Counted from the stretch's first letter, positions 3,362 through 23,832 are shown. The stretch is DNA of 27,897 bases from Bacteroidales bacterium (GCA_046485255.1 JAWOHI010000335.1:1-27897); one strand, 5' to 3'. The notes: generated by a model not told the origin, from the letters alone. A program made the numbers and translations.

Positions 3362-3368
3362 TGCCACG

Positions 3369-3824: not shown

Positions 3825-3828
3825 CCCA

Positions 3829-4959: not shown

Positions 4960-4983
4960 ACCAAACCGCATAGAACCTGGATT

Positions 4984-6608: not shown

Positions 6609-6618
6609 CCATCCAGAT

Positions 6619-7125: not shown

Positions 7126-7131
7126 GAAATG
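7118..7131 (+). promoter_or_regulatory. Shine-Dalgarno-like element GGAGGT at the nuoJ/nuoK junction
   Basis: GGAGGTAAGAAATG spans the nuoJ stop (TAA 7123-7125) and the nuoK ATG (7129). The identical 14-mer occurs at the dmsB/dmsC junction (22952-22965). Confidence 0.55.
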
Positions 7132-7446: not shown

Positions 7447-7464
7447 TCAACAGCACAGGCTTCA

Positions 7465-9381
7465 ATGAACTACTCGTTAACCCTTCTGATCATCCTGATC
7501 CCCGTGGCAACCTTCCTGTTGCTGGGGCTCACCGGTCACAAGATGAAACCGGTCATTGCCGGCCTTACCGGCACTGTCGGACTGGGGATCGTCGCCATCC
7601 TATCCTATTATACCGCCATTCAATACTTTTTCATCGACGGCACGGTGGATGGTGTCTATCCTAAGATAACCGCCTTTCCGATGGACTGGCTTCAACTGAC
7701 CGACTGGCTCACCATCCGGATGGGGATCCTGCTCGATCCGATCTCGGTGATGATGCTGGTGGTGGTTTCAACGGTCTCCTTTATGGTTCACTGGTACAGC
7801 CTGGGCTATATGAAAGGGGAAAAGGGTTTCCAGCGTTTCTACGCTTTTTTGTCGCTCTTTTCTTTCTCGATGCTCGGACTGGTGGTGGCCACCAACATCT
7901 TCCAGATGTATGTTTTCTGGGAACTGGTGGGGGTATCGTCTTTCCTGCTGATCGGGTACTATTACCAGAAACCGACGGCTGTGGCGGCCTCCAAGAAGGC
8001 GTTTATCGTGACGCGGTTTGCCGACCTCGGCTTCCTGATCGGTATCCTGCTGCTCTCCTATTTTACCAAGACATTTGATTTTTCAGTTCTTACGGGAGCC
8101 GACCAGTCGGTTTTCCGCGAAGCGGCCGCCACCTCGTTCCTGGGCTTGTCGGTGATGACGTGGGCTACCCTTTTGATCTTTATGGGGGGAGCCGGCAAAT
8201 CGGCTATGTTCCCCTTCCACATCTGGCTTCCCGACGCGATGGAGGGCCCCACCCCGGTGTCGGCCCTGATCCACGCGGCCACGATGGTGGTAGCCGGCGT
8301 TTTTCTGGTGGCCAGGATGTTCCCGGTTTACTATTTCCAGGCACCCGGCACGCTGGAGGTGATCGCCTATATCGGAGGCTTCACCTCGCTGTTCGCCGCC
8401 ATCATCGCCTGCACGCAGTTCGACATCAAGCGGGTGCTGGCCTTCTCCACCCTCTCCCAGATCGGCTATATGATGCTGGCCCTGGGGGTCTCGGGCTATG
8501 GTGGCCACCACGGAGTCGGATATATGGCCTCGATGTTCCACCTGTTCACCCACGCGATGTTCAAGGCCCTGCTCTTCCTGGGCGCCGGAGCTATCATTCA
8601 CGCCGTCCACAGCAACGTGATCCAGGATATGGGTGGCTTGCGCAAGTACCTGCCCATCACGCATATCACCTTTCTGATCGCCTGCCTAACCATAGCAGGG
8701 ATGCCGTTCCTCTCCGGATTTTTCAGCAAGGATGAGATCCTGGTTGCCGCCTATGAGCACAACAAGTTCCTGTTCGCAATCGAGTTCCTGGTGGCCGGAA
8801 TCACCGCCTTCTATATGTTCCGCCTCTATTTCAACATCTTCTGGGGTAAGGATACGCACTACCACCACACCCCGCACGAGGCCCCCCTCAGTATGACCAT
8901 CCCACTGATGGTGCTGGCGTTCGGCTCGATTTTCGCCGGGTACCTCCCCTTTACCCGGATGGTCACCTCAGACGGGATGCCGTTCGAGGCCCATATGAAC
9001 TTCGGTATCGCCATACCATCCGTCCTGATCGGGCTAACCGGAATCGGGATCGCCTGGGTTCTCTACCGCAAGCCTAATAACCTTCCTGACCGGATTGCAC
9101 GGGGTTTTGGACGGTTCTATCAGGTGGCTTACAATAAGTTCTATATCGACGAAGTCTACCTGTTCATCACCAAGAAAATCATTTTCAACCTGATATCCCG
9201 TCCGGTCGCTTGGTTCGACCGCCATATCGTGGATGGCACGATGAATGGCATAGGCTGGCTTACCGTCACCAGCGCCCGGAAGATCAGGAAACTGCAATCC
9301 GGTAACATTTCGCAATACGGGCTGGTGTTCGCGCTGGCGGCGATCGTCTTCGTGCTTGTTTTTGCTTATCTGGCAGCCTGA
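7465..9381 (+). CDS. nuoL: NADH-quinone oxidoreductase subunit L
   Basis: FWELVGVSSFLLIGY, KAFIVTRFAD, GKSAMFPFHIWLPDAMEGPTPVSALIHAATMV, KRVLAFSTLSQIGYM, HAMFKALLFLGAG, lateral-helix region NKFYIDEVY. Confidence 0.97.
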   Translation: MNYSLTLLIILIPVATFLLLGLTGHKMKPVIAGLTGTVGLGIVAILSYYTAIQYFFIDGTVDGVYPKITAFPMDWLQLTDWLTIRMGILLDPISVMMLVVVSTVSFMVHWYSLGYMKGEKGFQRFYAFLSLFSFSMLGLVVATNIFQMYVFWELVGVSSFLLIGYYYQKPTAVAASKKAFIVTRFADLGFLIGILLLSYFTKTFDFSVLTGADQSVFREAAATSFLGLSVMTWATLLIFMGGAGKSAMFPFHIWLPDAMEGPTPVSALIHAATMVVAGVFLVARMFPVYYFQAPGTLEVIAYIGGFTSLFAAIIACTQFDIKRVLAFSTLSQIGYMMLALGVSGYGGHHGVGYMASMFHLFTHAMFKALLFLGAGAIIHAVHSNVIQDMGGLRKYLPITHITFLIACLTIAGMPFLSGFFSKDEILVAAYEHNKFLFAIEFLVAGITAFYMFRLYFNIFWGKDTHYHHTPHEAPLSMTIPLMVLAFGSIFAGYLPFTRMVTSDGMPFEAHMNFGIAIPSVLIGLTGIGIAWVLYRKPNNLPDRIARGFGRFYQVAYNKFYIDEVYLFITKKIIFNLISRPVAWFDRHIVDGTMNGIGWLTVTSARKIRKLQSGNISQYGLVFALAAIVFVLVFAYLAA

Positions 9382-9411
9382 TGAGGGCTTATAACAAATA
9401 AGATACTGATT

Positions 9412-10908
9412 ATGAATATCCTGAACCTGTTCATCATCATTCCGGTCCTGACGATCGTGGGGATCCTTTTCACCAGGGACCATCGGGGAACACGGGTAAC
9501 GGCCGCCGTGGGGATGACCCTTCAGCTGATCACGGCAGCCATCCTGGCCATCTCCTTTTTCGCCCAGCGAAAGGCCGGCATCACCGGGGATTTCCTCTTT
9601 ATGAGCGACATCACCTGGTTCAAGTCGCTGAATATCCACTATCTGATCGGCGTTGACACCATTGGGGTCTGGATGATCTGTCTGACCGCAGTCGTCGTTT
9701 TTGCCGGGATCTTCGCCTCCTGGGAGATGGAGTACCTGGCGCGCGAGTTTTATATCTCCCTGATCCTGCTGGCCACGGGTGTTTTCGGGTTCTTTATCTC
9801 GCTCGACCTTTTCACGATGTTCCTGTTCTACGAACTGGCCGTGATCCCGATGTACCTGCTGATCGGGATCTGGGGCAGCGGCCCGAAAGAGTATTCAGCA
9901 ATGAAGCTGACCCTGATGCTGATGGGTGGGTCAGCCCTGCTGGTGGTCGGATTGCTTGGGATCTATTTCCATTCGGCGGATTCGGGCCCGGTCACCTTCA
10001 GCCTGGTTCAGCTGTCGGAGATCAGCTTCCCGATGGGAATGCAGCGTTTCTTCTTCCCATTCCTTTTTGTCGGCTTCGGCATCCTGGGCGCCCTCTTTCC
10101 CCTGCATACCTGGTCGCCCGACGGTCACTCCTCCGCTCCTACCGCGGTTTCGATGCTCCACGCCGGGGTGCTGATGAAGCTCGGGGGATATGGCTGCCTG
10201 CGCGTGGCGATGTACCTGCTACCCGAGGCTGCTGATGAAATGTCCTGGATATTTCTGATACTCACCACAATAAGTGTCGTTTACGGAGCCTTTGGCGCCA
10301 TTGTCCAGAAAGACCTGAAATACATCAATGCCTACTCATCGGTGAGCCATTGCGGACTGGTGCTGTTCGCCCTCCTGATGATGAACAAGACCTCCATCAA
10401 CGGAGCGGTGCTTCAGATGATATCCCACGGGTTGATGACGGCCCTCTTCTTTGCCCTGATCGGGATGATCTACGGGCGAACGCACACCCGAAACATCCAC
10501 GAAATGGGCGGATTGATGGCCGTGATCCCCTTCCTGAGCGTCGCCTACGTGATCGCCGGCCTCGCATCCCTCGGACTGCCCGGGCTGAGCGGCTTCGTGG
10601 CCGAGATGACCATCTTCGTCGGTGCGTTCCAGCATACCGACACCTTCCACCGGGTAGCCACCATCATCGCCACCACCTCCATCGTGATCACAGCCGTCTA
10701 TATCCTGCGGGTGGTCGGGCAGCTCCTGTTCGGGCCGATCCGGGAGAAGGAGTACCTGGAGTTTCCAGATGGCAAATGGTACGAGCGGATCAGCGTGGTG
10801 GCCCTGATCCTGCCGATCGGAATCATCGGGGTGTACCCCAGCTTCCTGTCCGGCTCGCTGATGGAGGCCATCAATCCGATTGTTGAACGACTAACAGCGA
10901 TGTTATAA
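9412..10908 (+). CDS. nuoM: NADH-quinone oxidoreductase subunit M
   Basis: FYELAVIPMYLLIGIWG, FPLHTWSPDGHSSAPTAVSMLHAGVLMKLGGYG, AYSSVSHCG, QMISHG, SLGLPGLSGFVAE. Confidence 0.97.
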   Translation: MNILNLFIIIPVLTIVGILFTRDHRGTRVTAAVGMTLQLITAAILAISFFAQRKAGITGDFLFMSDITWFKSLNIHYLIGVDTIGVWMICLTAVVVFAGIFASWEMEYLAREFYISLILLATGVFGFFISLDLFTMFLFYELAVIPMYLLIGIWGSGPKEYSAMKLTLMLMGGSALLVVGLLGIYFHSADSGPVTFSLVQLSEISFPMGMQRFFFPFLFVGFGILGALFPLHTWSPDGHSSAPTAVSMLHAGVLMKLGGYGCLRVAMYLLPEAADEMSWIFLILTTISVVYGAFGAIVQKDLKYINAYSSVSHCGLVLFALLMMNKTSINGAVLQMISHGLMTALFFALIGMIYGRTHTRNIHEMGGLMAVIPFLSVAYVIAGLASLGLPGLSGFVAEMTIFVGAFQHTDTFHRVATIIATTSIVITAVYILRVVGQLLFGPIREKEYLEFPDGKWYERISVVALILPIGIIGVYPSFLSGSLMEAINPIVERLTAML

Positions 10909-10920
10909 AAGGTTTACAAA

Positions 10921-12345
10921 ATGGAGAGTCACTCTTTTTTCCTGATGAGGAACGAGCTGTTGCTGGTTGGACTCGCGCTGGTGCTGCTCCTGGCCGAACT
11001 GGTCACCCCGGAGAGCAAGAAACAGGCCATCATCCCACTGGCGGCCATCCTGTTCGGGCTGGTCACCGCCGCCGGGTTCCTGCCGTTGCCCGAAGGCGAA
11101 CTGTTTGGAGGCAGCTTTGTCACCAACACGATGACCCAGTTAATGAAAAACATCCTCAACCTGGGGGTGTTCATCGTGTTCCTGCAGTCGTTCACCTGGC
11201 TCAAGCGGGAGGAGAACCAGGGCAAGATCGCCGAATATTTCATACTCCTGCTGTCCACCCTGATCGGGATGAACTATATGATCTCATCCGGTGATTTCCT
11301 GATGATGTACCTGGGTCTCGAACTGGCGACCATCCCGATCGCCGCCGTGGCAGCCTTTGAGAAGTTCAGCGAAAAGTCGGCCGAAGCCGGCATCAAGCTG
11401 ATCCTCACCTCCGCCCTCTCTTCGGGTATCCTGCTTTACGGGTTATCCTTCATTTACGGCACCACCGGCTCAATCTATTTCGAAGATATCGTCAGCCGAC
11501 TGTCCATCAATCCGCTGCAGACCTTTGGATTGGTGTTCTTTATAGCCGGGATGGCGTTCAAGATCTCTCTGGTGCCGTTCCATCTCTGGACAGCCGACGT
11601 ATACGAGGGGGCTCCCATCACCGTGACGGCCTACCTGTCGGTTGTCTCCAAAGGAGCCGCCGCCTTCACCTTCATGATCATCCTGTTCCGGGTCTTCGGC
11701 GCAATGACCGAGGTGTGGCAGCCACTGCTCTATACCCTGGCAGTCGCCACGATGACCGTCGGTAACCTGTTCGCAATCAGGCAGAACAACCTGAAGCGGT
11801 TCCTTGCATTCTCCTCCATCGCACAGGCCGGCTTCATCCTGCTGGGGATTCTGCAGGCGGGAGAGCTGGGTATGGCCACCGTGGTCTATTTTGTCCTGAT
11901 CTATGTCTTCACCAACCTGGCCGCCTTCGGGGTGGTCTCCATCATCTCGGAAGCATCCGGGCGCGAAAGGATCACCGACTACAACAGCCTCTACAAAACC
12001 AACCCCCGGCTGAGCCTGACGATGCTCCTGGCGATGTTTTCCCTCGCCGGCATTCCCCCGGTTGCCGGTTTCTTTGGAAAATTCTTCCTGTTCACCGCCG
12101 CCGGCGCCAAAGGATACTACATCCTGGTCCTGATCGCGGTGCTGAACGCAACCATTTCACTATACTATTACCTGCGGGTGATCAAGGCGATGCTTATCGA
12201 CCATTCGGATGAGCCGATCGCCACCTTCAGGACACCGCTATCGGCTCGTATCGGACTGATGATCTGTATTTTGGGCATCTTTACGATCGGCTTTGCCGGC
12301 TTCATCTACGACTATATTTCAACCATCAGTTTCGGAATAAACTAA
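10921..12345 (+). CDS. nuoN: NADH-quinone oxidoreductase subunit N
   Basis: YLGLELATIP, SAEAGIKL, FKISLVPFHLWTADVYEGAP, KRFLAFSSIAQAG, FSLAGIPPVAGFFGK, SLYYYLRVIK. Confidence 0.97.
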   Translation: MESHSFFLMRNELLLVGLALVLLLAELVTPESKKQAIIPLAAILFGLVTAAGFLPLPEGELFGGSFVTNTMTQLMKNILNLGVFIVFLQSFTWLKREENQGKIAEYFILLLSTLIGMNYMISSGDFLMMYLGLELATIPIAAVAAFEKFSEKSAEAGIKLILTSALSSGILLYGLSFIYGTTGSIYFEDIVSRLSINPLQTFGLVFFIAGMAFKISLVPFHLWTADVYEGAPITVTAYLSVVSKGAAAFTFMIILFRVFGAMTEVWQPLLYTLAVATMTVGNLFAIRQNNLKRFLAFSSIAQAGFILLGILQAGELGMATVVYFVLIYVFTNLAAFGVVSIISEASGRERITDYNSLYKTNPRLSLTMLLAMFSLAGIPPVAGFFGKFFLFTAAGAKGYYILVLIAVLNATISLYYYLRVIKAMLIDHSDEPIATFRTPLSARIGLMICILGIFTIGFAGFIYDYISTISFGIN

Positions 12346-12352
12346 CCAGGAT

Positions 12353-12679
12353 ATGGCATTGAACCAGGGAAAGCATAGCATTGAGGTGATCGACGGCAGG
12401 CGCTGCACGTTGGTCGAGAGCGGGATCACCGCGGAAAGGGCCGGGTTCCTGCGATCGATCCTCGAATTCAACGGGTATGAGGTTAAAACCGAGACCGATG
12501 CAGAAGGGCTGGTGAAGATCGGTGTAACCGACCTGGTATTTCACGCCGTGGTGGATGTGTACAAGCGAAGGCTCAAAACGCCCAACGGCCGGATCATTAC
12601 CCCTGCTTACTGGCTACAGTTGACCGACCGGCAGACCGAGGCCGAAGTCAATTACTGGCTCACCCCGGGACGGGATTAA
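12353..12679 (+). CDS. Hypothetical soluble protein, 108 aa, last gene of the nuo operon
   Basis: ATG 7 nt after the nuoN stop, preceded by AGGA. Globular composition with no TM segment and one Cys (IDGRRCTLVESG), plus ITPAYW. No family recognised with certainty. Confidence 0.75.
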   Translation: MALNQGKHSIEVIDGRRCTLVESGITAERAGFLRSILEFNGYEVKTETDAEGLVKIGVTDLVFHAVVDVYKRRLKTPNGRIITPAYWLQLTDRQTEAEVNYWLTPGRD

Positions 12680-13299
12680 CAGCCTCCGGAAACCTTTTTC
12701 TTCGCCGGTTGGCGGATGATCGTGGGTCGCGGTGCACCCGACTGTTCCGTTGTCGGCGTGATGGCGGCTCCGCCTCCGCCCAGTGCCGTACCTGCGGCAA
12801 GCCTGAAATCATAGCGGGCCAGTTCCTCATCCGGACTTGTAGAGGCCGGTTTATCCGGGTTCAAAATGGTTTCAACCCAGTGGTTGAGTCCGCCTTCCAG
12901 CACGTAATTATTCTGATATCCAAGCTGCCTCGTGATCATCCACGCCTGGTTGGCCACCAGGGTTCCGTTTGAATAGAAGATGTTCATCCGAACATCCTGG
13001 TTCAGGATATCGCTCCATTCGCTGTTGAGCAGGTCGGCAAACGGGATGTTGATAGCTCCCGGAAGGCTGTACTTTTCAAATTCATCCGGATCGCGCACGT
13101 CGATCAGTTGAATGGACGGATCCTTGCTTACCAGGAGGTCGGCCAGCTCATCCGGGCTGAAAAACTGGTAGCGGCTATTGGCTTCTTCAAGCAACTGATT
13201 GGCCGTCAATTTATAAGGCTTCGTTGTATTTTGCGGAACCGCGGCTATGATCAGTCCCAGCCCGACAATGGCAATCGACAAAATGACCCTTGATTTCAT
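12676..13299 (-). CDS. N-terminally anchored/secreted rhodanese-fold protein, 207 aa, with C-terminal GGC
   Basis: Hydrophobic N-terminus MKSRVILSIAIVGLGLIIAAVP, then LIDVRDPDEFEKYSLPGAINIP and YVLEGGLNHW. The active-site loop reads FYSNG (Ser at the usual Cys position). ATG 13299 is preferred over 13353, which overlaps the upstream gene. Confidence 0.88.
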   Translation of the reverse strand: MKSRVILSIAIVGLGLIIAAVPQNTTKPYKLTANQLLEEANSRYQFFSPDELADLLVSKDPSIQLIDVRDPDEFEKYSLPGAINIPFADLLNSEWSDILNQDVRMNIFYSNGTLVANQAWMITRQLGYQNNYVLEGGLNHWVETILNPDKPASTSPDEELARYDFRLAAGTALGGGGAAITPTTEQSGAPRPTIIRQPAKKKVSGGC

Positions 13300-13316
13300 T
13301 TTCCTGTAGATTAAGG

Positions 13317-13907
13317 TTAATACTCCTCGCGCGGGAACCGCTTCTCGGCCCATTCGGCGGCATAGAACATCCCGACGGCGGCAAGGATCACGCCCAGCGC
13401 CAGCAATCCATCGGAGAGGCCCAGCGATTCACTAAGCTTGGGGCTTCCCTTGAAGCCGGCCAGATAGAGTTTCTCCCAGAGCGGGTATGTTTCCGAAAAG
13501 ATGATCACCCCGATGAAAAGGCCTCCCACGAAAACCATCGCATCGATCTTGCCGATGGCTGCTCCGCAGAAGCTGGTACCGGGACAAAAGCCGCCGATGA
13601 TGAATCCGGCTCCCATCACCACGCCTCCGATGATGGCCGAGGTGAGATAGGTGGGGTTGACATAGACCAGGCTGAGGTCGACCCAGCCGAAAAGGCTCAT
13701 AAAAAGCAATCCGAGCATTGCGGTGATGGCCGCCGTGAAGAAAACCTTAAGCACGACGGCATCGTAGCCATAGAAAACGCCTGCCAGCTTGCGGCTGGAG
13801 GAAAACCCGCTGCTTTCCAGCACCATACCAAAGGCGATCCCGATCAGGAAGGCCAGAAGGAAGTTGGTATCTTCCGAAATGATATCATTGACAAATAGTG
13901 GTCCCAT
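13317..13907 (-). CDS. YeeE/YedE (sulfur-compound transporter) family half-size membrane protein, 196 aa
   Basis: AFLIGIAFGMVLESSGF, VFFTAAIT, IIGGVVMGAGFIIGGFCPGTS (G-x-C-P-G-T motif), GLFIG. Confidence 0.88.
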   Translation of the reverse strand: MGPLFVNDIISEDTNFLLAFLIGIAFGMVLESSGFSSSRKLAGVFYGYDAVVLKVFFTAAITAMLGLLFMSLFGWVDLSLVYVNPTYLTSAIIGGVVMGAGFIIGGFCPGTSFCGAAIGKIDAMVFVGGLFIGVIIFSETYPLWEKLYLAGFKGSPKLSESLGLSDGLLALGVILAAVGMFYAAEWAEKRFPREEY

Positions 13908-13925
13908 TGTGTTCTTGGTTTTAGG

Positions 13926-14456
13926 TTAGATCCAGTTTTTGCGGAAAAAGTAGGCCAGGGCGAAAGCGGTTCCGAAGATGGCGGCCATCGTGATGAAGCC
14001 GCCCAGTGAAATGACGGCCATGCCGCTCAGGGCAGATCCGCTGGTGCATCCGCGCCCCAGCTGCGATCCAAAGCCGAACAGGATCCCTCCGATCGCGGCC
14101 AGGAAGAGCCTCTTCCGAGAGGTGATCTTCGGGCTATGCTCCACCTTGAGCTTCAGCCGGCCCCACAGGGCGCCTGAGACGAAGCCCCCGACCAGCACCC
14201 CAGCCATCTGGAAAACCAGCCAGCTACGCAAGGGCTTGTCGTGGTCCTTCATATAATCGTTATAGTAGGCGTTCCGCTCCACGTGGCGGGGGGAGATGGT
14301 TTGTGTGGCAGCCACCACCGCACTCTTGACCGCACCGCTGGCCCCGAGGCCCCGGCCTGAAATGAAATTCGCGGCAAGCAAAACCAGGCCCAGCAAAACA
14401 CCCCCCAGGTAAGGATTCAGGTACCTGCGCGATTTGTCTTTAACCATACTTTCCAT
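13926..14456 (-). CDS. YeeE/YedE family half-size membrane protein, about 176 aa
   Basis: YLNPYLGGVLLG, GRGLGASG, GGILFGFGSQLGRGCTSGSALSG (G-C-T-S-G motif). Start is uncertain: 14471, 14456 or 14447. Confidence 0.88.
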   Translation of the reverse strand: MESMVKDKSRRYLNPYLGGVLLGLVLLAANFISGRGLGASGAVKSAVVAATQTISPRHVERNAYYNDYMKDHDKPLRSWLVFQMAGVLVGGFVSGALWGRLKLKVEHSPKITSRKRLFLAAIGGILFGFGSQLGRGCTSGSALSGMAVISLGGFITMAAIFGTAFALAYFFRKNWI

Positions 14457-14476
14457 AATTGCTCTATTCAATTGTT

Positions 14477-14524
14477 CTATCTATCTATCCAACTATCAAA
14501 CTATCCAACTATCATCTATCATCA
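14477..14524. repeat. Intergenic short tandem repeat array (CTATC core)
   Basis: CTATC occurs at 14477, 14481, 14485, 14493, 14501, 14509 and 14516 (spacings 4,4,8,8,8,7), between the nrfD/psrC stop and the first yeeE gene. Confidence 0.8.
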
Positions 14525-15463
14525 GTACATCCACCGGCTTGCCTGACCCGCATAGACCAGGATGAACCGGAGCATCAGGCCTCCGAAGATGACCAGGATG
14601 GCAGGAATGTAAACCGGGACGCGGTATTTCATCAGCTCCAGGACTTCGAGCAGGGCGGGCAGGATCAGCCCCATCGCGACCACCAGGATCCAGAAAGGTG
14701 CCGTGTAGGGTCCGCCGAGAAAAAGGTTGGCCGCATCGATCTGTACCTGCGTGCTGGCCAGAAAGCCCATAAAGAGGTGTACGATCAGGAAAAGCTCTAT
14801 CGCAATCAGCAGCAGGTCGATACGGGCAAAAGTCTTGCGCTCCTCGTGGTCCCTGGAAAACAGGATGATGGCGGCAGCACCGGTTGAAAGGCCCGACACC
14901 AGGAACAGGGGCCCCAGGATCGAGGTGTTCCAAAGCGGCCGGGCATTGAAAGCCGACAGGAGTATGCCGGTATAGACCCCCAGGATCACCGCGCAGACGA
15001 TGATCAGCCAGGCGAGCACCTTCTTGTATTTGATGAAAAAGGCTTCCAAACTATTGAGCCACTGGTATTTCCAGTCCCACCGCGGAAAAACGTCGCGCAG
15101 GTGGATGGCTGCCCAGATAAACGATATCGGGGTGATGACCATCAGGGTCCAGGCTCCCCAGGACATCGGCGACTGGAGGCGTATGGTGGTGTATAGCTGC
15201 CAGAAATAGAGTTTGTGCTTCAGGTCGAGGAACAGTGCGAACAAGCCCAGGACCAACAGGACGGGAACGATCAGCGGGGCCACCTTCACGGTTGCCCGGT
15301 ACTGTTCCTCCTTGCCCCGGATAACGAAAAGGGCCGCAAAAAAGAGGATGCCGGCCGCCAGTCCCCCCAGGAACAAGTATAGGGGGATTTGCCAGTGCCA
15401 TATATTCAAATGCGGATCGATGAATGGGTTCATCCTGCCGCTGACGATGATCTCTTCTCTCAT
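14522..15463 (-). CDS. psrC: NrfD/PsrC-family quinol-interacting membrane subunit, 313 aa
   Basis: WHWQIPLYLFLGGLAAG, LFLDL, SPMSWGAW, GVYTGILLS...ARPLWN, LFLVSGLSTG, GGLMLRF...AGQ; about 8 TM. Confidence 0.92.
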   Translation of the reverse strand: MREEIIVSGRMNPFIDPHLNIWHWQIPLYLFLGGLAAGILFFAALFVIRGKEEQYRATVKVAPLIVPVLLVLGLFALFLDLKHKLYFWQLYTTIRLQSPMSWGAWTLMVITPISFIWAAIHLRDVFPRWDWKYQWLNSLEAFFIKYKKVLAWLIIVCAVILGVYTGILLSAFNARPLWNTSILGPLFLVSGLSTGAAAIILFSRDHEERKTFARIDLLLIAIELFLIVHLFMGFLASTQVQIDAANLFLGGPYTAPFWILVVAMGLILPALLEVLELMKYRVPVYIPAILVIFGGLMLRFILVYAGQASRWMY

Positions 15464-15476
15464 AATGTGCTATCGG

Positions 15477-16010
15477 TTAGATCAGAAAATAGAGATGCGG
15501 CTTGGTCCCGGCCTCCGGGATCAGGGTTTTGTATTTCCTGTTTTTCAGGACGATGGACACCGGGCTCTTCGGATCATCCAGGTCGCCGAAATACATACAC
15601 TTGGTGGGACACACCGACACGCAGGCCGGTTCGAGGCCCTTTTTCACCCGGTGGATGCAGAAAGTACACTTATCCACATAACCTTTTGGGTGCGAATATC
15701 TTGCATCATAAGGACAGCTGGCAATGCAGGCTCCGCAGCCGATGCACCGGTGAGGAGTGACCAGCACGATCCCCCCGTCGGCGTAGTGGCTCGCCCCGGT
15801 TGGGCAGCAACGGACGCACGGGGAGTTTTCGCAGTGGTTGCAACGCTCCGAGCGGATCTCGATCTCGAGCTGGGGGTAAGTGCCATCGGTCACCTCCACT
15901 ACCCAGTCGCGGCAGTACCCAATAGGCACCTCATTTTCTGTCTGGCAGGCCACCACGCAATCGCTGCAGCCCACGCATTTCAGGGTATCGATCGCCATTG
16001 CGTATCTCAT
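15477..16010 (-). CDS. psrB: 4x[4Fe-4S] electron-transfer subunit (PsrB/NrfC-like), 177 aa
   Basis: CVGCSDCVVAC, CNHCENSPCVRCCP, CIGCGACIASCP, KCTFC...PACVSVCP. No signal peptide. Overlaps the psrA stop (ATGA). Confidence 0.93.
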   Translation of the reverse strand: MRYAMAIDTLKCVGCSDCVVACQTENEVPIGYCRDWVVEVTDGTYPQLEIEIRSERCNHCENSPCVRCCPTGASHYADGGIVLVTPHRCIGCGACIASCPYDARYSHPKGYVDKCTFCIHRVKKGLEPACVSVCPTKCMYFGDLDDPKSPVSIVLKNRKYKTLIPEAGTKPHLYFLI

Positions 16011-18235
16011 TGCCTTACCTCCTCCATTTCAGTGACAAAGGTGACAAAGTTGCCCCGCATTCCGGTTCCACCCATCAGTGGATCAACCAACACCTTGGTG
16101 ATCAGGTTAGTATCACTGGCCCCTCGCCCGTAACTTCGGGTCAGTTTCTTCTGGTCGTGCCCGAAACCGTGAACCATATAAACCGAATCCCACCGGATCC
16201 GCTCGGTGATCCTGATGCGGATGGGGAATTCGGAGCGTTTGCCATCCTGGTTCATCAGGTGGATGTACTGGTCGTTGACCAGTCCCCACTCCCGGGCCAC
16301 TTTTGGGTTGACCCACACGGTGTTCTCATCCATCAGGTCGGTCAGGTTGGGATTGTTTGCCGTGCGGCTGAAGGTATGCATCGGTGCCCGGCCGTAGTTG
16401 AGGCGGTAGTACCCTGGCGGCGGTTCCTCGTGGGGGGTGTAGACCGGCAGCGGGTCGAAACCTTCCATCTCGAACGCGGTGGCATAGAGTTCGATCTTGC
16501 CCGTGTTGGTGTAAAATTCGATCTCTTCGCCCGGAGCAAAATAGAGGTCGTCGAAGGAGCGTTCAAAAGTTTTAACACCGATCCGCATCATCTCCTCCAA
16601 GCTGGTTCCCAGCTCTTTCAGCTGCCAATCCAGCAGGTCTTCCTGTTTTTCAAACGGAAACCAGGCCTCCAGGCCGAGTCGTTGAGCCAGTTCGCGGGCC
16701 ATCCAGTAGGCCGGTTTAGTATCGTGTTTCGGTTTGAAGGCCGGCATTCGAAGGGCGATCTGCGGCTTTCGGTGCGGGCTCACCCGGATCTCGTCGTACC
16801 TTTCGAGGTAGGTACATTCGGGCAACACCACGTCGGCATATCCGGTGATCTCCATCGGCATCGTATCGACCACGACCAGCAGATCGAGCGATTCGATGGC
16901 CTTGATGGTGTTCTCCTGGTTGGGCAGGGTTTCGATCAGGTTGGTGCCGTTGACGATCCAGGCCTTGAAATTGCAGCCCCGGCTCGGATCGGGAATGGAG
17001 GCATCGCACACCCCGTTGGCCAGAACGGTGTCTGAAAGTCGGTAAAGGTCGGGAAATTCCGTACGCCACGTTCTCTTCGGAACGGGATATTCGGGGTGGG
17101 GCGGTTCGGGCAGGGTAACCGACTCGGGACGGTAGAAGCCCCCCCGTCGCCCCCAGGAGCCGAGCAGCGCATTGAGTATGGCCACTGCACGAAGCCGCTG
17201 GGTATCATCGCCGTACCAGGTCACGTGGCGTCCGGGGTGAACGATGACCGCGGGTGAGGCGTGCCCCATCGCGCGGGCGGTCTCCCGGATCACCTCCGGC
17301 CTGATGGTGGTAATGCCGTAAGCCCATTCGGGCGTCATTACGGCAACGTGGTCCCTGAGCTGCTCAAACCCGTAGGTGTAACGCTCCACGTAATCACGGT
17401 CGTAAAGTCCTTCCTTGATGATCACGTGGATCCAGGCAAGCAGCAGGGCAAGGTCGGTGGCCGGTTTGATCGGGAGCCAGTATTTTGACTTGGAGGCTGC
17501 CGTGGAGTAACGGGGATCCACCGTGATGATGGTGGCGCCCTTGTCGATGGCATCCGACATTTCCTGGACCTGCCCATTGTGCATATTCTCCCCCAGGTGG
17601 CTGCCAATCAGCACCAAACAGCGGGTGTCCCGGATATCGGTCCGCTCAGGGCTCTCGACCCCCTCGCCGAACGTGTTCTGAAAGGCCACCTCCCTCGGCC
17701 CGCGGCATTGCGCGTAGGACGGGGCGGCTATATGGGGCGACCCGAAGGCCTTCAGCAAAGTCCCGAAATATTTTCCGCCCGAACCGTGCGTAAACAATGC
17801 CGTACACTCCGGGCCATGCTCAGCCGCAATCTCCGTAATCCTCCTGGCAATGAAATCCAATGCCTCCTCCCAGGAAACCTCCTCGAAAACCTGCTTCCCA
17901 TTCACCATCTTGCGCATCAGCGGGGTCTTCAGCCGGTCCTCATCGTTATACATCCCCACCCCGCCGGTTCCCCTGGGGCAGAAGCGTCCGTTCGAATGAA
18001 GATCCTCATCGTTGCCGGTGATCTTCCACAACTCGCCCCGGTCGTTCTTGTGGATCCATCCGGCACACTTCCAGAAACAAACCTCACAGTAGGTAGGGGT
18101 TCGCCGCATCGCCTCAAAGGGGTATGAGTCGGCCAATTCCGACTGGAATGCCAAGCTTCGGATCACCGGCAGTCCAACCGCTACTCCCCCAGCTCCCAAT
18201 GCCGAAATCTTGATAAAACTTCGTCTGGACGCCAT
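16007..18235 (-). CDS. psrA: Tat-exported polysulfide/thiosulfate reductase-like bis-MGD molybdoenzyme catalytic subunit (PsrA/PhsA clade), 742 aa
   Basis: Tat signal MASRRSFIK, FS0 ligands CEVCFWKC...FCPRG, DRLKTP, SYAQCRGP (likely Cys metal ligand), ADVVLPECTYLER, C-terminal NPKVA...VHGFG. Exact substrate cannot be assigned from motifs alone. Confidence 0.85.
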   Translation of the reverse strand: MASRRSFIKISALGAGGVAVGLPVIRSLAFQSELADSYPFEAMRRTPTYCEVCFWKCAGWIHKNDRGELWKITGNDEDLHSNGRFCPRGTGGVGMYNDEDRLKTPLMRKMVNGKQVFEEVSWEEALDFIARRITEIAAEHGPECTALFTHGSGGKYFGTLLKAFGSPHIAAPSYAQCRGPREVAFQNTFGEGVESPERTDIRDTRCLVLIGSHLGENMHNGQVQEMSDAIDKGATIITVDPRYSTAASKSKYWLPIKPATDLALLLAWIHVIIKEGLYDRDYVERYTYGFEQLRDHVAVMTPEWAYGITTIRPEVIRETARAMGHASPAVIVHPGRHVTWYGDDTQRLRAVAILNALLGSWGRRGGFYRPESVTLPEPPHPEYPVPKRTWRTEFPDLYRLSDTVLANGVCDASIPDPSRGCNFKAWIVNGTNLIETLPNQENTIKAIESLDLLVVVDTMPMEITGYADVVLPECTYLERYDEIRVSPHRKPQIALRMPAFKPKHDTKPAYWMARELAQRLGLEAWFPFEKQEDLLDWQLKELGTSLEEMMRIGVKTFERSFDDLYFAPGEEIEFYTNTGKIELYATAFEMEGFDPLPVYTPHEEPPPGYYRLNYGRAPMHTFSRTANNPNLTDLMDENTVWVNPKVAREWGLVNDQYIHLMNQDGKRSEFPIRIRITERIRWDSVYMVHGFGHDQKKLTRSYGRGASDTNLITKVLVDPLMGGTGMRGNFVTFVTEMEEVRQ

Positions 18236-18271
18236 ATATCTAATTATCTAAATAATTAATTTATTAGAGTG

Positions 18272-18279
18272 TAAACTTA
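18272..18279 (-). promoter_or_regulatory. Possible -7 promoter element for the psr operon
   Basis: Minus strand TAAGTTTA (TAnnTTTG with one mismatch), 36 nt before the psrA ATG. The region is very AT-rich, so a chance match is possible. Confidence 0.3.
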
Positions 18280-18326
18280 CAGATTAATTCAGTGCCCTGA
18301 TAAAAAATTAACAGAAAAAATTATCC

Positions 18327-18334
18327 AATCTTTG
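18327..18334 (+). promoter_or_regulatory. Possible -7 promoter element for lipA-lipB
   Basis: AATCTTTG(CC) is TAnnTTTG with one mismatch, 26 nt before the lipA ATG. Confidence 0.35.
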
Positions 18335-18360
18335 CCTTGATTTTTGATTGGTTAACGCGA

Positions 18361-19212: not shown

Positions 19213-19909
19213 CATCAGCAAGGGAACCATCGTCTACGAGGACCTCGGTTTGATGGATTACCGCCAGGCCTGGGATTACCAGGCGGAGCTTTTCAACGGG
19301 AGGGTGGCGCGCAAGCTCCTGAACCGGGAGATTGGCGAGGAGCAGCAATCCTGGCTCGACAACCGGCTCATCTTCGTGGAGCATCCGCACGTGTACACGC
19401 TCGGAAAGTCCGGAAATCAAAACAACCTGTTGATCAACAGCGACTTCCTCAACAAGATTCAGGCCACCTATTACCATATCGACCGCGGAGGCGACATCAC
19501 CTACCACGGGCCCGGCCAGATTGTGGGCTACCCGATCTTCGACCTTGAGCATTTTGGCCTGCACCTGAAGCAATACGTGTACAATCTGGAAGAGGCCATC
19601 ATATTGACGGTCAGGCGGTATGGCATCTCTGCCGGGCGTCTTCAGGGAGCCACCGGCGTCTGGATTGAGCCGGGAACACCGCGGGCGCGCAAGATCTGCG
19701 CGATCGGGGTCAAGGCCAGCCGGCACGTGACAATGCACGGCTTTGCCTTCAATGTCAACACCAACCTTGCCTATTTCAGCCATATCAATCCTTGCGGGTT
19801 CCTCGACAAGGGAGTCACTTCAATGGCCAACGAGCTGGGATCAGACCAGGATTTCGACCAGGTGAAAGGGGTCTTGAGGGAGAACCTGATCAGCCTCTTC
19901 AGGGTATAG
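19202..19909 (+). CDS. lipB: Octanoyltransferase
   Basis: FVEHPHVYTLGKSG, DRGGDITYHGPGQIVGYP, RKICAIGV, MHGFAFNVN, INPCG. Overlaps lipA by 11 nt. Confidence 0.96.
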   Translation: MSDNISKGTIVYEDLGLMDYRQAWDYQAELFNGRVARKLLNREIGEEQQSWLDNRLIFVEHPHVYTLGKSGNQNNLLINSDFLNKIQATYYHIDRGGDITYHGPGQIVGYPIFDLEHFGLHLKQYVYNLEEAIILTVRRYGISAGRLQGATGVWIEPGTPRARKICAIGVKASRHVTMHGFAFNVNTNLAYFSHINPCGFLDKGVTSMANELGSDQDFDQVKGVLRENLISLFRV

Positions 19910-19968
19910 CGGATTTTTATTATCCGAATTCTGGTGTATTTTTAGGTCGGGATACCAAAACCGGTCTG

Positions 19969-22341
19969 ATGGCTCGTCAAAATCGCAGGGATTTCATTCG
20001 CACAACGGCAGTAGCTGGAGGCGTGGCGCTTACCGCACCTGCCTGGATTGGCAAAACTCTCGGAATTGAGCCAGGGATGGCCGCCTCGGCCGACCTCCCG
20101 CGCAATGGCTGGATCAACCTCGGCTGCCCCGCCCATAATTGTGGCGGTCGCTGCCTGCTGAAAGTGCTGGTCAAGGACGGGGTCATCGCCCGCATCGAAA
20201 CCGACAGCCGGGAGGGCGACAGCGCCGCCGACCCCCAGCTCAGGGCCTGTATCCGGGGCCGTGCCTACCGGAAAAGGCAGTATCACCCCGACCGGCTGCA
20301 GTACCCGATGGTGCGCACCGGCAAGCGGGGCGAAGGGCATTTCGAGCGGATCTCCTGGGATGAAGCATACGATCTGATGGCATCCAAAATGCTGGAGATC
20401 AGGGATCAATATGGCAATGAAGCCTTCCACGTACCTTACGGGACCGGCAGCTACAGCCACCTTAACGGCCGCTGGCCGGCCGCCCGCCTGATCAACCTTT
20501 TCGGTGGGTCGCTCGATTACTACAACTCCTACTCCTGGGCCGCCATCAGCCGGGCCACCCCGACAGTTTACGGCACCGGCATCTGCGGCAACCAGCGGCA
20601 GGACTGGCTCAATTCCAGGTATATCCTGATGTGGGGCTGGAACCCGGCTGAGATGCGCGACGGCACCAATTCGGAGTACTTCATCAAGCTGGCACGTCAG
20701 AACGGTGCCCGGGTGGTCTGCATCGACCCCAGGATGACCCTCTCGGCCGTTGCCCTGGCCGATGAGTGGATCCCGATCCGGCCCGGGACGGACGTGGCGA
20801 TGATGAGTGCAATGGCTTACGTGATGATCCGTGAGGGCCTGGCAGATCGTGAATTCATCCGGACCCACTGCGTCGGGTTTGACAAAACCCAGATGCCTAA
20901 AGGTCTTGAAGGCGAGGAGTCCTATACCGACTATCTACTGGGCAGCCGCGACGGGCAGCCCAAAACACCCGAATGGGCGGCCCGCATCACCGGGGTGCCC
21001 GCGGCCACCATCACACGGATCGCCAGGGAGTATGCCACCATCAAGCCGGCAATGCTCTACCAGGGCTACGGAATGCAGCGGCGCGCCTACGGTGAGCAAC
21101 CGGTCAGGGGCGGCTGCGTCCTCGCCGCAATCACCGGGAACATCGGGATACCCGGCGGCTGGGCCTCGGGAATCGCCCTGCAGCCCGGCGGTGGCCCCTT
21201 CTGGAGCATCTTCCCTACCGGAACCAACCCCGTGAAAGCCAAAATACCGGTCTTCCTTTGGACGGAGGCGATCCTGCGCGGACCTGAACTGACCAAAAAA
21301 GATGGTCTGACCGGAACCGACCGGCTGACCACTGGCATCCAATTCATCTGGTCGGTCGCCTCCAATATCCTGATCAACCAGCACAGCAACACCAACCGGA
21401 CTGCATCGATCCTGAGAAACGAGGACCTGGTGAAATTCATCGTGGTCCAGGACCAGTTCCTCACCGCCTCGGCCCGGTTTGCCGACCTGCTCCTGCCGGC
21501 CTGCACCCATTTTGAAACCTGGGGGCTGGAGGATGGCTGGAAGTACGGCGAAGAGGTGTTCCTGATGCCCAAAATCGTTGAACCCTACGGCGAGAGCCGA
21601 TCCGATTATGCCATCTGCGCCGGCCTGGCAGACAGGCTGGGACTGGCCGACGCCTTTACCGAAGGGCTGGATGAGCGGGGTTGGACCAAACGTCTTTGGG
21701 ATCAGTTCCGTCGTCTGAGATTTCCCGAATTACCTGATTTTGAAGTTTTTATCAAATCCAACCAGGGCGTCTACACGGTTCCGGTGGAAAAACCGGCCAT
21801 CTCCTTTGCCGACTTCAGGCGTGATCCTCAGGGATATCCGTTGAACACCCCAAGCGGGAAGATCGAGATCTTCTCGGAAAACCTTTATAAGATGGAGCAG
21901 CCGGAGGAGATCCCCCCCATTCCCAAGTACATACAGGAGTGGGAATCCCCATTCGGACCGGAGGCTGAAGCCTATCCGCTCCAGGCCATCGGACCGCATT
22001 ATATGCCCCGGGTACACTCCACCCACGACAACATCGACTGGCTCAAGTCGGCCTTTCCCCAGAGGCTCTTCATCAACCCGGTTGATGCCGGGTCGAGGGG
22101 GATCGCGGACGGCGACCAGGTCATCGCCTTCAATTCCAGGGGGAGGCTGATGCTTCCCTGCCGGGTCACCTCACGGATAATGCCCGGGGTCGTCTCCATC
22201 CCACAGGGCTCCTGGAGCAGTTTCGGCAAGAACGGCCTCGACGAAAAGGCCAACATCAACGCCCTCGCATCTGAGCGGTGGACCCCCCTGGCGTTCGGTA
22301 ACGCCCAGCATACGATAATGGTTGAAGTTAAAAAGCGATGA
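19969..22341 (+). CDS. dmsA: Tat-exported DmsA/YnfE-like bis-MGD molybdoenzyme (S-/N-oxide or selenate reductase-type), 790 aa
   Basis: Tat signal MARQNRRDFIR, CPAHNCGGRC, QLRACIRGRAYR, YHPDRLQYPM, NSYSWAAI (Ser ligand region), MQRRAYGEQ, TPSGKIEI, PRVHST. ATG 19969 is preferred over GTG 19792, which overlaps lipB. Confidence 0.88.
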   Translation: MARQNRRDFIRTTAVAGGVALTAPAWIGKTLGIEPGMAASADLPRNGWINLGCPAHNCGGRCLLKVLVKDGVIARIETDSREGDSAADPQLRACIRGRAYRKRQYHPDRLQYPMVRTGKRGEGHFERISWDEAYDLMASKMLEIRDQYGNEAFHVPYGTGSYSHLNGRWPAARLINLFGGSLDYYNSYSWAAISRATPTVYGTGICGNQRQDWLNSRYILMWGWNPAEMRDGTNSEYFIKLARQNGARVVCIDPRMTLSAVALADEWIPIRPGTDVAMMSAMAYVMIREGLADREFIRTHCVGFDKTQMPKGLEGEESYTDYLLGSRDGQPKTPEWAARITGVPAATITRIAREYATIKPAMLYQGYGMQRRAYGEQPVRGGCVLAAITGNIGIPGGWASGIALQPGGGPFWSIFPTGTNPVKAKIPVFLWTEAILRGPELTKKDGLTGTDRLTTGIQFIWSVASNILINQHSNTNRTASILRNEDLVKFIVVQDQFLTASARFADLLLPACTHFETWGLEDGWKYGEEVFLMPKIVEPYGESRSDYAICAGLADRLGLADAFTEGLDERGWTKRLWDQFRRLRFPELPDFEVFIKSNQGVYTVPVEKPAISFADFRRDPQGYPLNTPSGKIEIFSENLYKMEQPEEIPPIPKYIQEWESPFGPEAEAYPLQAIGPHYMPRVHSTHDNIDWLKSAFPQRLFINPVDAGSRGIADGDQVIAFNSRGRLMLPCRVTSRIMPGVVSIPQGSWSSFGKNGLDEKANINALASERWTPLAFGNAQHTIMVEVKKR

Positions 22342-22970
22342 TGATGGCAACACTCGGATTCTATTTTGACGCTTCCGCCTGCTCCGGTTGCAAAACGTGC
22401 CAGGTAGCCTGCCAGGACAAGAACGATCTGCCTGCCGGCATTCGCTTCCGCAGGATTTACGAGGTTTGCGGGGCCAACTGGATGCCCGATGACCTTGGGG
22501 CTTGGATTCCGTCCATCGCCGCCTACAATATATCGGTCGCCTGCAACCACTGTGAGGAGTCTCCCTGTACCAAGGCGTGCCCGACGAGGGCTATGTACAG
22601 GGATGCCAATGGCATAGTGGCCATCGATCCGAAAAAGTGCATCGGATGCCGTTATTGCGAATGGGCCTGCCCCTATGGGGCCCCGCAGTACAATAAATCG
22701 CTGGGAATAATGCAAAAATGCGACCTCTGCCGTGACTACCTCGCCGACGGCAAGCTGCCGGTGTGCGTTTCGTCCTGTCCAATGCGTGCACTCGATTTTG
22801 GCCCGCTCAACGAACTCAGGGAGCGCTATGGCAACAATGCCACCCTATACCCCCTGCCCGATGGCGAAACCGTTGGTGCCGGCTGGGTTGTCAAACCACA
22901 CTCCGCAGAGGGAAAAGCCAGGGATCTGGGTGCGCGGATCATCAATCAGGAGGAGGTAAGAAATGGCTGA
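22338..22970 (+). CDS. dmsB: DmsB-like 4x[4Fe-4S] subunit
   Basis: LGFYFDASACSGCKTCQVACQDKN, CNHCEESPCTKACP, CIGCRYCEWACPYGAPQY, KCDLC...PVCVSSCPMRALDFG. Start is 22338, 22341 or 22344. Confidence 0.93.
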   Translation: MMMATLGFYFDASACSGCKTCQVACQDKNDLPAGIRFRRIYEVCGANWMPDDLGAWIPSIAAYNISVACNHCEESPCTKACPTRAMYRDANGIVAIDPKKCIGCRYCEWACPYGAPQYNKSLGIMQKCDLCRDYLADGKLPVCVSSCPMRALDFGPLNELRERYGNNATLYPLPDGETVGAGWVVKPHSAEGKARDLGARIINQEEVRNG

Positions 22971-23832
22971 CAATATCCTTCCCCTGCTGATCTTCACCCT
23001 GCTGGTCCAGTTTTCGGCCGGGATAGTCATCATTTACGGGCTGTTCCTGCTCTTCCCGCATTTCAGAAGCAAGAATGAAATTCCGCGCAGGTTCAAATGG
23101 ATCCTGATCGTGGCTTCCGCTGCGGCTCTGGTTGGCGTAGTCGCCTCTTTCCTCCACCTGGGGAGTCCGCTTAAGGCATTCCGGGCTGTGGCCAACCTGG
23201 GCAACTCCAGTCTCTCCCTTGAGATCCTGACGGTGCTGGTCTTTCTGGGCAGCCTGCTCACCCTTACCGTGATCCAGTTTGTCATCCCCTACCCTCGCAG
23301 ACGCCACCACTGGCTCACGATCATCACGCTGTTAGCCGGGCTATTGGTGATCTATGTTATGGCCACCGTTTACCAGCTGCCAACCCGTCCGGCCTGGAAC
23401 TCCATTTTCACCCCGGTCGGGTTCTATCTTGCCGCCCTGGTTACGGGCTCCGCACTGTTGCTGCTGTTTCAGATCAACAGTGGCTCCTGGGCCAGCCAGA
23501 AAGCCCTGGCCATCCTGATCATAGCCATCCCTGCCATCCACCTGGCGCTGCTGCCATTTCATATGGGCTGGCTTGGCAAGGCCAGCGAGGCCACCAGGGC
23601 CAGCCTGGAAGTGATGCTTGGCAGTAACCTGGTTCTATTCCTCCTGGGGCTGATCACGATGGCGATAACCATCGGTACCGGATTCTGGGCGCTCTTTTCA
23701 ATTAAATCAGGGATCATCAAGAACCGTTTCCTCTTCATTCCCTCCATCGCAGCCTTCCTCTTCGCTTGGGCGGCAATGATCATCGACCGGGTCCTGTTCT
23801 ATCTGCACGGAGTGGCCGCGGGCGGGCTCTGA
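22963..23832 (+). CDS. dmsC: DmsC-like membrane anchor subunit, 289 aa
   Basis: LLIFTLLVQFSAG, SFLHLGSPLKAFRAVANLGNSSLSLEI, terminal IDRVLFY; about 8 TM. Confidence 0.9.
   Translation: MADNILPLLIFTLLVQFSAGIVIIYGLFLLFPHFRSKNEIPRRFKWILIVASAAALVGVVASFLHLGSPLKAFRAVANLGNSSLSLEILTVLVFLGSLLTLTVIQFVIPYPRRRHHWLTIITLLAGLLVIYVMATVYQLPTRPAWNSIFTPVGFYLAALVTGSALLLLFQINSGSWASQKALAILIIAIPAIHLALLPFHMGWLGKASEATRASLEVMLGSNLVLFLLGLITMAITIGTGFWALFSIKSGIIKNRFLFIPSIAAFLFAWAAMIIDRVLFYLHGVAAGGL

Follow-up and report, generated by a model that had tools for sequence, protein, structure and literature searches.

Metagenome surveys routinely take Psr and Phs gene counts as a sign of sulfur or thiosulfate respiration, and the Bacteroidota of sediments tend to be seen as plain fermenters. 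What, then, is a Psr-type reductase doing in a Bacteroidales bacterium, in one operon with two YeeE genes and a rhodanese-fold gene whose product ends in a cysteine? The stretch under study, referred to as the window, comprises 27,897 nt (GCA_046485255.1 JAWOHI010000335.1:1-27897), and the module occupies positions 12676-18235. We favor, with slightly better than even confidence, the reading that this operon encodes a quinol-driven PsrABC-type reductase of polysulfide, thiosulfate and/or tetrathionate together with a carrier and channel kit. The kit, or trio, consists of YeeE1, YeeE2 and a Cys-tailed rhodanese-fold carrier. As judged from its sequence, the module would be a variant of Psr-type sulfur respiration with its own carrier and channel; the gene cluster itself has already been noted (PMC9324843).

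Listing and translation of the open reading frames (ORFs) gave six co-oriented genes on the minus strand, psrA, psrB, psrC, yeeE1, yeeE2 and the rhodanese-fold gene (Table 1). From psrA to the rhodanese gene, the intergenic gaps were -4, 13, 50 (TTG start) or 65 (ATG start), 18 and 17 nt. An earlier note on this DNA had described these six genes and their gaps; the ORF listing bore this out, and Pfam and NCBIfam confirmed all six domain assignments. The note had also proposed a synteny survey, in which the unit recurred. Specifically, scanning 185,579 species genomes with a YeeE1 pattern matched at least 583 species-level relatives of YeeE1. Among the best 80 of these at least 583 loci, all six genes were present and co-oriented in 69; contig ends cut most of the remaining loci. 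The median gaps of the complete copies were -4, 13, 21, 18 and 18 nt. The six-gene arrangement is far beyond chance, and the six genes are one real, widely conserved operon. Hosts of the module include cultured Carboxylicivirga (C. caseinilyticus A049 and C. fragile N1Y90), metagenome-assembled genomes named Labilibaculum, Marinifilum, Draconibacterium, Mariniphaga, Flavobacteriaceae and Marinimicrobia, and SAR324. In Chondrinema litorale WSW3-B12, a complete module lies beside an IS4 transposase on a 310-kb plasmid (locus L005), and two Bacteroidales genomes with the module have unrelated flanks.

The most distinctive component is the carrier. Its active-site loop, FYSNG, has Ser in place of the catalytic Cys. 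Its sole Cys is the last residue, Cys207: after a Gly/Ala/Pro-rich linker and a KKK patch, the protein ends ...KKKVSGGC-stop. Of 120 homologues sharing at least 64% identity, 119 end in GGC and 112 have a single Cys. In diverse carriers (26-62% identity), neither Gly206 nor Cys207 varies and the Lys patch hardly does; the endings differ only as GGC, EGC, GGCS and similar. Nearly all homologues have Ser or another non-Cys residue at the rhodanese active-site position; that of locus L054 has two Cys, one at the canonical position (LLYCEDN) and one in the tail. The rhodanese fold was recognized by Pfam (58 bits), by a profile match to Sud (1QXN, E = 3e-8) and by Foldseek matches to single-domain rhodaneses. 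The AlphaFold model has a transmembrane (TM) helix at residues 3-19, a rhodanese domain at 33-172 with a predicted local distance difference test score (pLDDT) above 90, and a tail at 176-207 with a pLDDT below 50; in this model, the tail is disordered. The earlier note described the protein as a terminal-Cys rhodanese, and the fold and the terminal Cys were borne out; it is, however, no ordinary sulfurtransferase. Indeed, a normal rhodanese of the Sud/GlpE/PspE kind was rejected on the missing catalytic Cys. SoxY is a periplasmic protein of immunoglobulin-like fold that carries a single Cys on a flexible, Gly-rich C-terminal arm (GGCGG). A SoxY-type carrier was rejected as well: here the fold is that of a rhodanese, the end is GGC-COOH, the Cys is terminal or rarely followed by one or two residues, a Lys patch precedes it and the partners are reductases. 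Only the principle of the arm is alike. Variants of the carrier were seen in L054 (9901-10545), L005 (14510-14926), L110, L135, L101 and L112. Besides the carrier, several loci encode either another Cys-tailed copy or a rhodanese-like protein of 138-182 aa with an N-terminal TM helix and no Cys tail.

The two YeeE proteins cover different parts of the Pfam Sulf_transp profile, positions 169-309 for YeeE1 and 9-157 for YeeE2. By these positions they are complementary halves of one YeeE-type channel rather than duplicates, in keeping with the split pair described in the earlier note. In StYeeE, whose topology is N-out/C-in, H7 links two inverted repeats, H1-H6 and H8-H13, with Cys91 on the cytoplasmic side and Cys293 on the periplasmic side (PMC7449682). 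Hydropathy and counts of Lys and Arg (K/R) agree with this scheme. YeeE2, whose N-end is acidic and whose C-end is rich in K/R, has five TM helices and corresponds to H1-H7 (N-out/C-in). YeeE1 corresponds to H8-H13, with four TM helices and K/R-rich ends and central loop (N-in/C-in), so the split falls after H7. In alignments, YeeE1 has the invariant loops SGRGLGASG and GRGC(T)SG, with Cys142 at the position of StYeeE Cys293. The YeeE2 loop FCPGTSFCG places a Cys at the position of Cys91. YeeE2 alone matched no solved structure by sequence.

All TsuA/YedE scores in NCBIfam were far under cut-off, the TsuA models, which have cut-offs of 400 and 645 bits, giving 38 and 23. A YeeE/TsuA transporter proper is one protein of roughly 330 aa with nine TM helices and three conserved Cys. 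It was rejected, as the channel here is made of two proteins, misses the TsuA cut-offs and has lost the Cys at the Cys22 position, and as no TusA-like YeeD/TsuB partner was found in the 86%-complete host genome. What we found instead corresponds to the PmpA/PmpB type: adjacent half-length Sulf_transp genes, one for the C-half and one for the N-half, each with one conserved Cys loop. The pair shares the Sulf_transp fold and the loops at the Cys91 and Cys293 positions with YeeE/TsuA-YeeD(TsuB), PmpAB and SoxT, and the halves are expected to pair as proposed for PmpA and PmpB. Compared with PmpA/PmpB (PMC11582611), the halves are longer, the cut comes after H7, and a further TM helix, resembling H7, belongs to YeeE2. 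Compared with YeeE-YeeD, the partner would be a periplasmic Cys-tailed rhodanese rather than the cytoplasmic, TusA-like YeeD.

We sampled 401 genomes of the phylum for homologues of the carrier and found one in 60. All 29 carrier loci inspected in other genomes adjoin YeeE genes; both halves were present in 27, and two loci were cut by contig ends. The 20 loci with larger flanks fell into two architectures. A free carrier, found in seven, lay downstream of PsrABC, YeeE1 and YeeE2 in every case. In the other 13, the carrier was fused to the C-terminus of YeeE2 (396-444 aa, with the extra TM helix kept), and all 13 fusions belonged to an Otr-type operon. Such operons comprise a MerR or MarR regulator, an octaheme cytochrome of the Otr family (TIGR04315, 599 bits; 1SP3, E = 1e-133), a PhsC-like cytochrome b, YeeE1 and the YeeE2-carrier fusion. 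Loci L049 and L096 hold both architectures side by side. Because the trio also ends operons of Otr and cytochrome b, two unrelated quinol-linked periplasmic sulfur reductases, Psr and Otr, share the kit. Otr from Shewanella oneidensis (1SP3; TIGR04315) is relevant here only as the alternative partner of the kit in other Bacteroidota, and no Otr scored above cut-off in the window or the host genome. The fusions also bear on topology. A loop with four K/R residues precedes their sixth TM helix by hydropathy, and since the fusion puts the rhodanese domain and tail opposite the cytoplasmic C-end of YeeE2, both are probably periplasmic. We infer that the carrier is tethered to the inner membrane.

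The same survey bears on whether the reductase takes part at all. The trio may be an autonomous system for the uptake of thiosulfate or zero-valent sulfur, like TsuA-TsuB, PmpAB or SoxT, with the carrier as donor and Psr not acting on it. Psr and Otr would then be co-located only since they make or consume the same compounds, such as thiosulfate from tetrathionate. We regard this as a serious rival, though less probable than the preferred reading. The carrier is fused to YeeE2 and never to Psr or Otr subunits, and by these gene fusions the YeeE pair, rather than Psr specifically, is its obligate partner. Import roles of the YeeE family are documented (PMC7449682, PMC11582611), uptake of the product of thiosulfate reduction was proposed by Williams et al. 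(PMC9324843), and stand-alone trios occur. Nevertheless, more than 95% of the evaluable loci that we examined tie the trio to a reductase, and in locus L142 the trio is embedded between psrB and psrC. The claim in the earlier note that the YeeE and rhodanese genes are integrated with the reductase agrees with their conserved place in the operon. Moreover, the Psr products sulfide and sulfite are poor candidates for import, and the host genome, which is 86% complete, yielded no sulfite reductase of the NIR_SIR type (Dsr/Asr/CysI). It likewise yielded no cytoplasmic acceptor of the TusA/YeeD type (PF01206) and no other YeeE.

We next consider the reductase. PsrA has the twin-arginine translocation (Tat) motif SRRSFIK at residues 3-9. 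Against all solved structures, its top match was Thermus thermophilus PsrA (2VPW-2VPZ; E = 3e-188, 630 bits, residues 3-733), the runner-up being acetylene hydratase at 179 bits and ArrA reaching 112 bits; DmsA and Fdh were likewise far poorer matches. The best NCBIfam model was PhsA (NF012032) at 432.6 bits, under its equivalog cut-off of 694, followed by Fdh-alpha at 236 bits and ArrA at 122 bits; TtrA was outside the best 25. Cys177, His150 and Arg336 align with Cys173, His145 and Arg332 of Thermus PsrA, of which Cys173 is the Mo ligand. The Tat signal and the Cys ligand in AQCRGP read from the sequence in the earlier note are thereby substantiated. His145 and Arg332 reportedly have catalytic roles (Jormakka et al. 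2008). An alignment of 70 PsrA orthologues showed the RR-F of the Tat motif, Cys50, Cys53, Cys57 and Cys86 of FS0, Cys177, His150 and Arg336 to be invariant. The PsrB translation shows four Cys clusters; its nearest NCBIfam models, NrfC, ArrB, DsrO and TtrB, all scored under cut-off. Eight hydrophobic segments predict eight TM helices in PsrC, which is of the NrfD type, unlike the cytochrome b PhsC of Salmonella. The complex resembles PsrABC of Thermus and Wolinella throughout: a Tat-exported catalytic subunit with the FS0 Cys motif, the Mo-ligating Cys and the His/Arg pair, a four-cluster iron-sulfur subunit and an eight-TM NrfD-type anchor. By these features PsrA carries every sequence hallmark of an active Thermus-type PsrA, and its place within the Psr/Phs sulfur clade, with the active site intact, is supported. 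A Salmonella-type PhsABC was rejected: the PhsA cut-off was missed, the anchor is NrfD rather than cytochrome b, PsrA shares 30% identity with the PhsA proteins of Salmonella and an E. coli plasmid, and Salmonella PhsA lies in the opposite half of the tree described below.

The scores also speak to the element that is reduced. A selenium or arsenic oxyanion as the true substrate, handled by an SrrABC-like selenite reductase with rhodanese helpers and YedE-type selenium transport or by an Arr-like enzyme, seems to us highly improbable. The selenite reductase operon of Bacillus selenitireducens carries rhodanese genes. YeeE2 and the rhodanese do weakly match the selenium-linked NCBIfam models seleno_YedE, YedE/FdhT, TsoB and LYCAU, and the host encodes SelD; however, every one of these scores is far under cut-off. 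SelD is not associated with the trio: 7 of 59 trio-bearing Bacteroidota genomes have it, compared with 58 of the 341 that lack the trio. The ArrA matches of 112-122 bits stand against 630 bits for Thermus PsrA, and the tail ends in Cys followed by a TAA stop, not in a selenocysteine codon. The SelD gene of the host (C218:1266-2192, 401 bits) is part of an open frame that extends over 707 aa, roughly double the usual length. Frames in genomes G115 and G131 are similarly long, which suggests a fusion with another domain.

To place PsrA among its relatives, we used a FastTree phylogeny of 119 rows, comprising representatives at 50% identity from a PsrA-family library, 20 PsrAs from trio loci, Salmonella PhsA and, as outgroup, the DmsA of the window. 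Its support values are local only and its named anchors few. All known trio-linked PsrAs, including 20/20 from trio-bearing loci, fall in one half of the tree, within a supported group that leaves out Salmonella PhsA and a Phs-cytochrome b clade. A tree with TtrA, SrrA and ArrA among its references had been proposed in the earlier note as a check; separation from PhsA and DmsA was obtained, whereas those references, like the Wolinella and Thermus sequences, are not among the rows. The placement relative to ArrA and TtrA comes from the hidden Markov model and PDB scores given above, comparisons that do not include SrrA.

Gene context was checked for library representatives inside and beside the trio-linked group. 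In the subfamily that holds PsrA, 5 of 7 representatives checked in this way are linked to the trio. The trio accompanies PsrA P0124 (locus L142), where the genes for YeeE1 and a YeeE2-carrier fusion lie between psrB and psrC with 4-nt overlaps. It also accompanies the SAR324 PsrA, whose carrier ends in YEGC, as well as P0274 and P0131. The more distant P0132 lacks YeeE and goes with a classical Sud-like rhodanese that has a signal peptide and a YCAAGTRG loop. The trio is missing beside P0130 and P0285, each of which is accompanied by a cytochrome b. Linkage to the trio is typical of this PsrA subfamily, not strict. PsrAs of Marinimicrobia (Fidelibacterota) nest among Bacteroidota sequences, and since a plasmid copy of the module also exists, the module appears to move between phyla by lateral transfer.

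Based on the preferred reading, the reductase would face the periplasm, with PsrB as an iron-sulfur wire and PsrC as an NrfD-type quinol site. The thiol of Cys207 on the tail would capture sulfane sulfur, polysulfide or S8 giving a persulfide or polysulfide adduct; tetrathionate would leave a thiosulfonate on the same residue. The formation of such adducts is ordinary thiol chemistry. The flexible arm would then offer the bound sulfur to the active-site funnel of PsrA, where electrons derived from menaquinol would release sulfide. The quinol is probably supplied by the adjacent 11-subunit NDH-1. Alternatively or additionally, the arm may pass sulfur to Cys142 of YeeE1 at the outer mouth of the channel, and from there past the inner Cys loop to the cytoplasm, comparable to the proposed transfer from SoxYZ to SoxT. 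The carrier would fill the role that Sud has for Wolinella Psr, by SoxY-like arm chemistry. The module may serve respiration, as the earlier note supposed, or else provide an electron sink during fermentation or assist sulfur uptake. A common pool of arm-handled sulfur substrates would fit both the sharing of the kit by Psr and Otr and the two substrates of the Psr homologue of Shewanella ANA-3. A more specific proposal, which we advance tentatively and rate well below even, is that in the cell both this Psr subfamily and Otr act on sulfur bound covalently to the terminal Cys, not on the free compound. YeeE would load or unload the arm across the membrane, and the whole would be a reductive counterpart of Sox.

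Should the carrier supply the reductase or the channel, three things would change: the view of how sulfur intermediates at low concentration are captured, the natural role most likely for Otr enzymes and the reading of psrA counts in sulfur-cycle surveys. With the cultured hosts of the module, Carboxylicivirga and Chondrinema, the idea can be put to a direct test.

As stated in the earlier note, the sequence does not tell in which direction the reaction runs. PsrABC might oxidize sulfide to a carrier-bound persulfide or polysulfide with menaquinone as acceptor, YeeE importing the sulfur for cytoplasmic use or oxidation. We judge this improbable, though sulfide oxidation by menaquinone is thermodynamically downhill. 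Wolinella Psr can work in reverse (cited in PMC3906813), the proposed import from SoxYZ to SoxT is a known oxidative analogue (PMC11582611), and locus L002, from another Bacteroidales genome, has Hdr-like genes about 5 kb downstream of the module. On the other side, the module occurs in fermentative Bacteroidota of sediments, Otr as the alternative partner belongs to a reductase family, and neither TusA nor a sulfite reductase of the NIR_SIR type was found in the 86%-complete genome.

Several observations weigh against a reductase served by a carrier and channel. In L110 and L135 the trio stands by itself with no reductase, which shows that Psr is not required for the kit to work. The tree group also includes at least one PsrA that goes with a cytochrome b and lacks the trio. 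It is hard to see why a respiratory reductase should need a channel to the cytoplasm; H2S requires no transporter. In the 86%-complete genome, moreover, neither a sulfite reductase nor TusA nor any other cytoplasmic pathway was seen that could take over imported sulfur. The periplasmic placement of the carrier derives from homology and the positive-inside rule. Finally, the outer vestibule of YeeE and the carrier tail are both basic, which is awkward for direct docking.

Comparable clusters have been described. In Ca. Electryonea clarkiae, Ca. Lernaella stagnicola and Caldithrix abyssi, Williams et al. 2022 (PMC9324843) reported clusters in which pmpA/B and a sulfurtransferase gene come after phsABC, and assigned them no function. 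In Ca. Lernaella, one Pmp half and the sulfurtransferase form a fused protein. Their PhsA was placed in the Psr/Phs cluster. The same paper cites a stimulation of fermentative growth and sulfide production by thiosulfate in C. abyssi. The likeness to the present module is one of gene order and content, which are the same. Their paper does not mention that the catalytic Cys is missing, that the tail invariantly ends in Gly-Cys, how the proteins are oriented in the membrane, or that Otr operons have the trio too; our literature search found no account of the catalytic-Cys loss, an invariant terminal Gly-Cys, a periplasmic topology or the Otr sharing, and the cluster is not described in the cable-bacteria paper. 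In Wolinella, Sud (1QXN) is likewise a rhodanese-fold accessory, expected to be periplasmic in both systems. In contrast to Psr of Thermus and to Psr with Sud in Wolinella, the accessory here lacks the active-site Cys, would be membrane-tethered, bears a terminal tail Cys and stands alongside a split YeeE. The psr operon of Desulfurivibrio contains a secreted rhodanese (PMC12142623). The Psr homologue of Shewanella ANA-3 respires thiosulfate and tetrathionate, and Otr has no assigned role there (PMC12949373). The psr operon of Marine Group A (PMC3906813) was rejected as the same system: it is of a different, cytoplasmic psrBCA type.

Table 1. Genes and intergenic features of the psr module, in window coordinates.
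Feature	Position	Strand	Description
psrA	16007-18235	-	742 aa; predicted Tat-exported catalytic subunit with molybdenum bis(pyranopterin guanine dinucleotide) (Mo-bisPGD); Pfam Molybdopterin and Molydop_binding
psrB	15477-16010	-	177 aa; predicted electron-transfer subunit with four [4Fe-4S] clusters; start overlaps the psrA stop by 4 nt; Pfam Fer4_11
psrC	14522-15463	-	313 aa; predicted NrfD-type quinol-interacting membrane anchor; Pfam NrfD, 171 bits
psrC-yeeE1 spacer	14472-14521	-	tandem repeat, 8-nt unit TTGGATAG, about 4.6 copies (Tandem Repeats Finder, TRF)
yeeE1	13926-14471, probable ATG at 14456	-	176-181 aa; C-terminal-half YeeE; Pfam Sulf_transp
yeeE2	13317-13907	-	196 aa; N-terminal-half YeeE plus an H7-like fifth TM helix; Pfam Sulf_transp
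Cys-tailed rhodanese-fold carrier	12676-13299	-	207 aa; second ATG as start, stop TAA; Pfam Rhodanese
psrA-lipA intergenic region	18236-18336	.	divergent, AT-rich; probable promoter region

The start of the carrier gene was taken as 13299 because homologues begin at the methionine of MKSR and because the alternative start of the ORF, at 13353, would overlap yeeE2. A terminator scan found no terminator-like hairpin in any intergenic gap of the operon, the psrC-yeeE1 spacer included. In the terminator and promoter scans no count exceeded that in shuffled sequences, the promoter tool having no Bacteroidota-type promoters. An Rfam scan found no family, such as a Moco riboswitch. The psrC-yeeE1 spacers of relatives also contain short tandem repeats, of unrelated units (GAGGTT or GGCAGA) and often with a period of 7; those in L001 (8744-8846), from a related Bacteroidales genome, and L002 (8551-8720) are examples. 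In all, 86 psrC-yeeE1 spacers were covered. A TRF score of at least 50 was reached by 13% of psrC-yeeE1 spacers versus 5% of other 40-300-nt spacers from the same loci. The corresponding repeat densities were 1.39 and 0.39 per kb, in related genomes that are non-independent samples. The repeats could tune expression of the trio.

The module lies next to a nuo operon at 1-12345. The host genome has TatC and MoaA, and its only two molybdopterin enzymes, PsrA and one of the DmsA type, are both within the window. Because no NiFe hydrogenase and no formate dehydrogenase were found in the 86%-complete genome, the electrons likely come from this NDH-1 via menaquinone. Past lipA/lipB, a second respiratory molybdoenzyme operon occupies 19792-23832 on the plus strand. 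It encodes a subunit of the DmsA/YnfE family (TIGR02166, 877 bits) and DmsB (236 bits), both above cut-off, and a 289-aa anchor that is the counterpart of a DmsC-family gene in the syntenic L001. The nuo and Dms-type operons form a respiratory island around psr, and L001 has the same order. A 108-aa ORF at 12353-12679 (plus strand) starts 7 nt past nuoN, is convergent with the module and overlaps the carrier stop with its end; it has no Pfam or NCBIfam match. L001 has an ORF of 104 aa in the corresponding place and, between the carrier gene and this small ORF, a group II intron reverse transcriptase (11303-12700; RVT_1 and GIIM).

Two further loci have additional genes nearby. In L142, a metagenome contig, the genes at 7001-14276 are tightly packed in the order psrA, psrB, yeeE1, yeeE2-carrier fusion and psrC. 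Three more follow, which encode a DsrC-family protein without Cys, an outer-membrane channel of the FadL/Toluene_X kind and a DUF302 protein. Through this channel the sulfur substrate may enter. The Hdr-like set of L002 (15448-20501) comprises an HdrC-like protein, a CCG-domain protein, a short FAD protein, a ferredoxin and a Fer4-CCG fusion, and could be a cytoplasmic sulfur pathway. Upstream, L002 encodes a full-length YeeE and a class-V aminotransferase of 524 aa.

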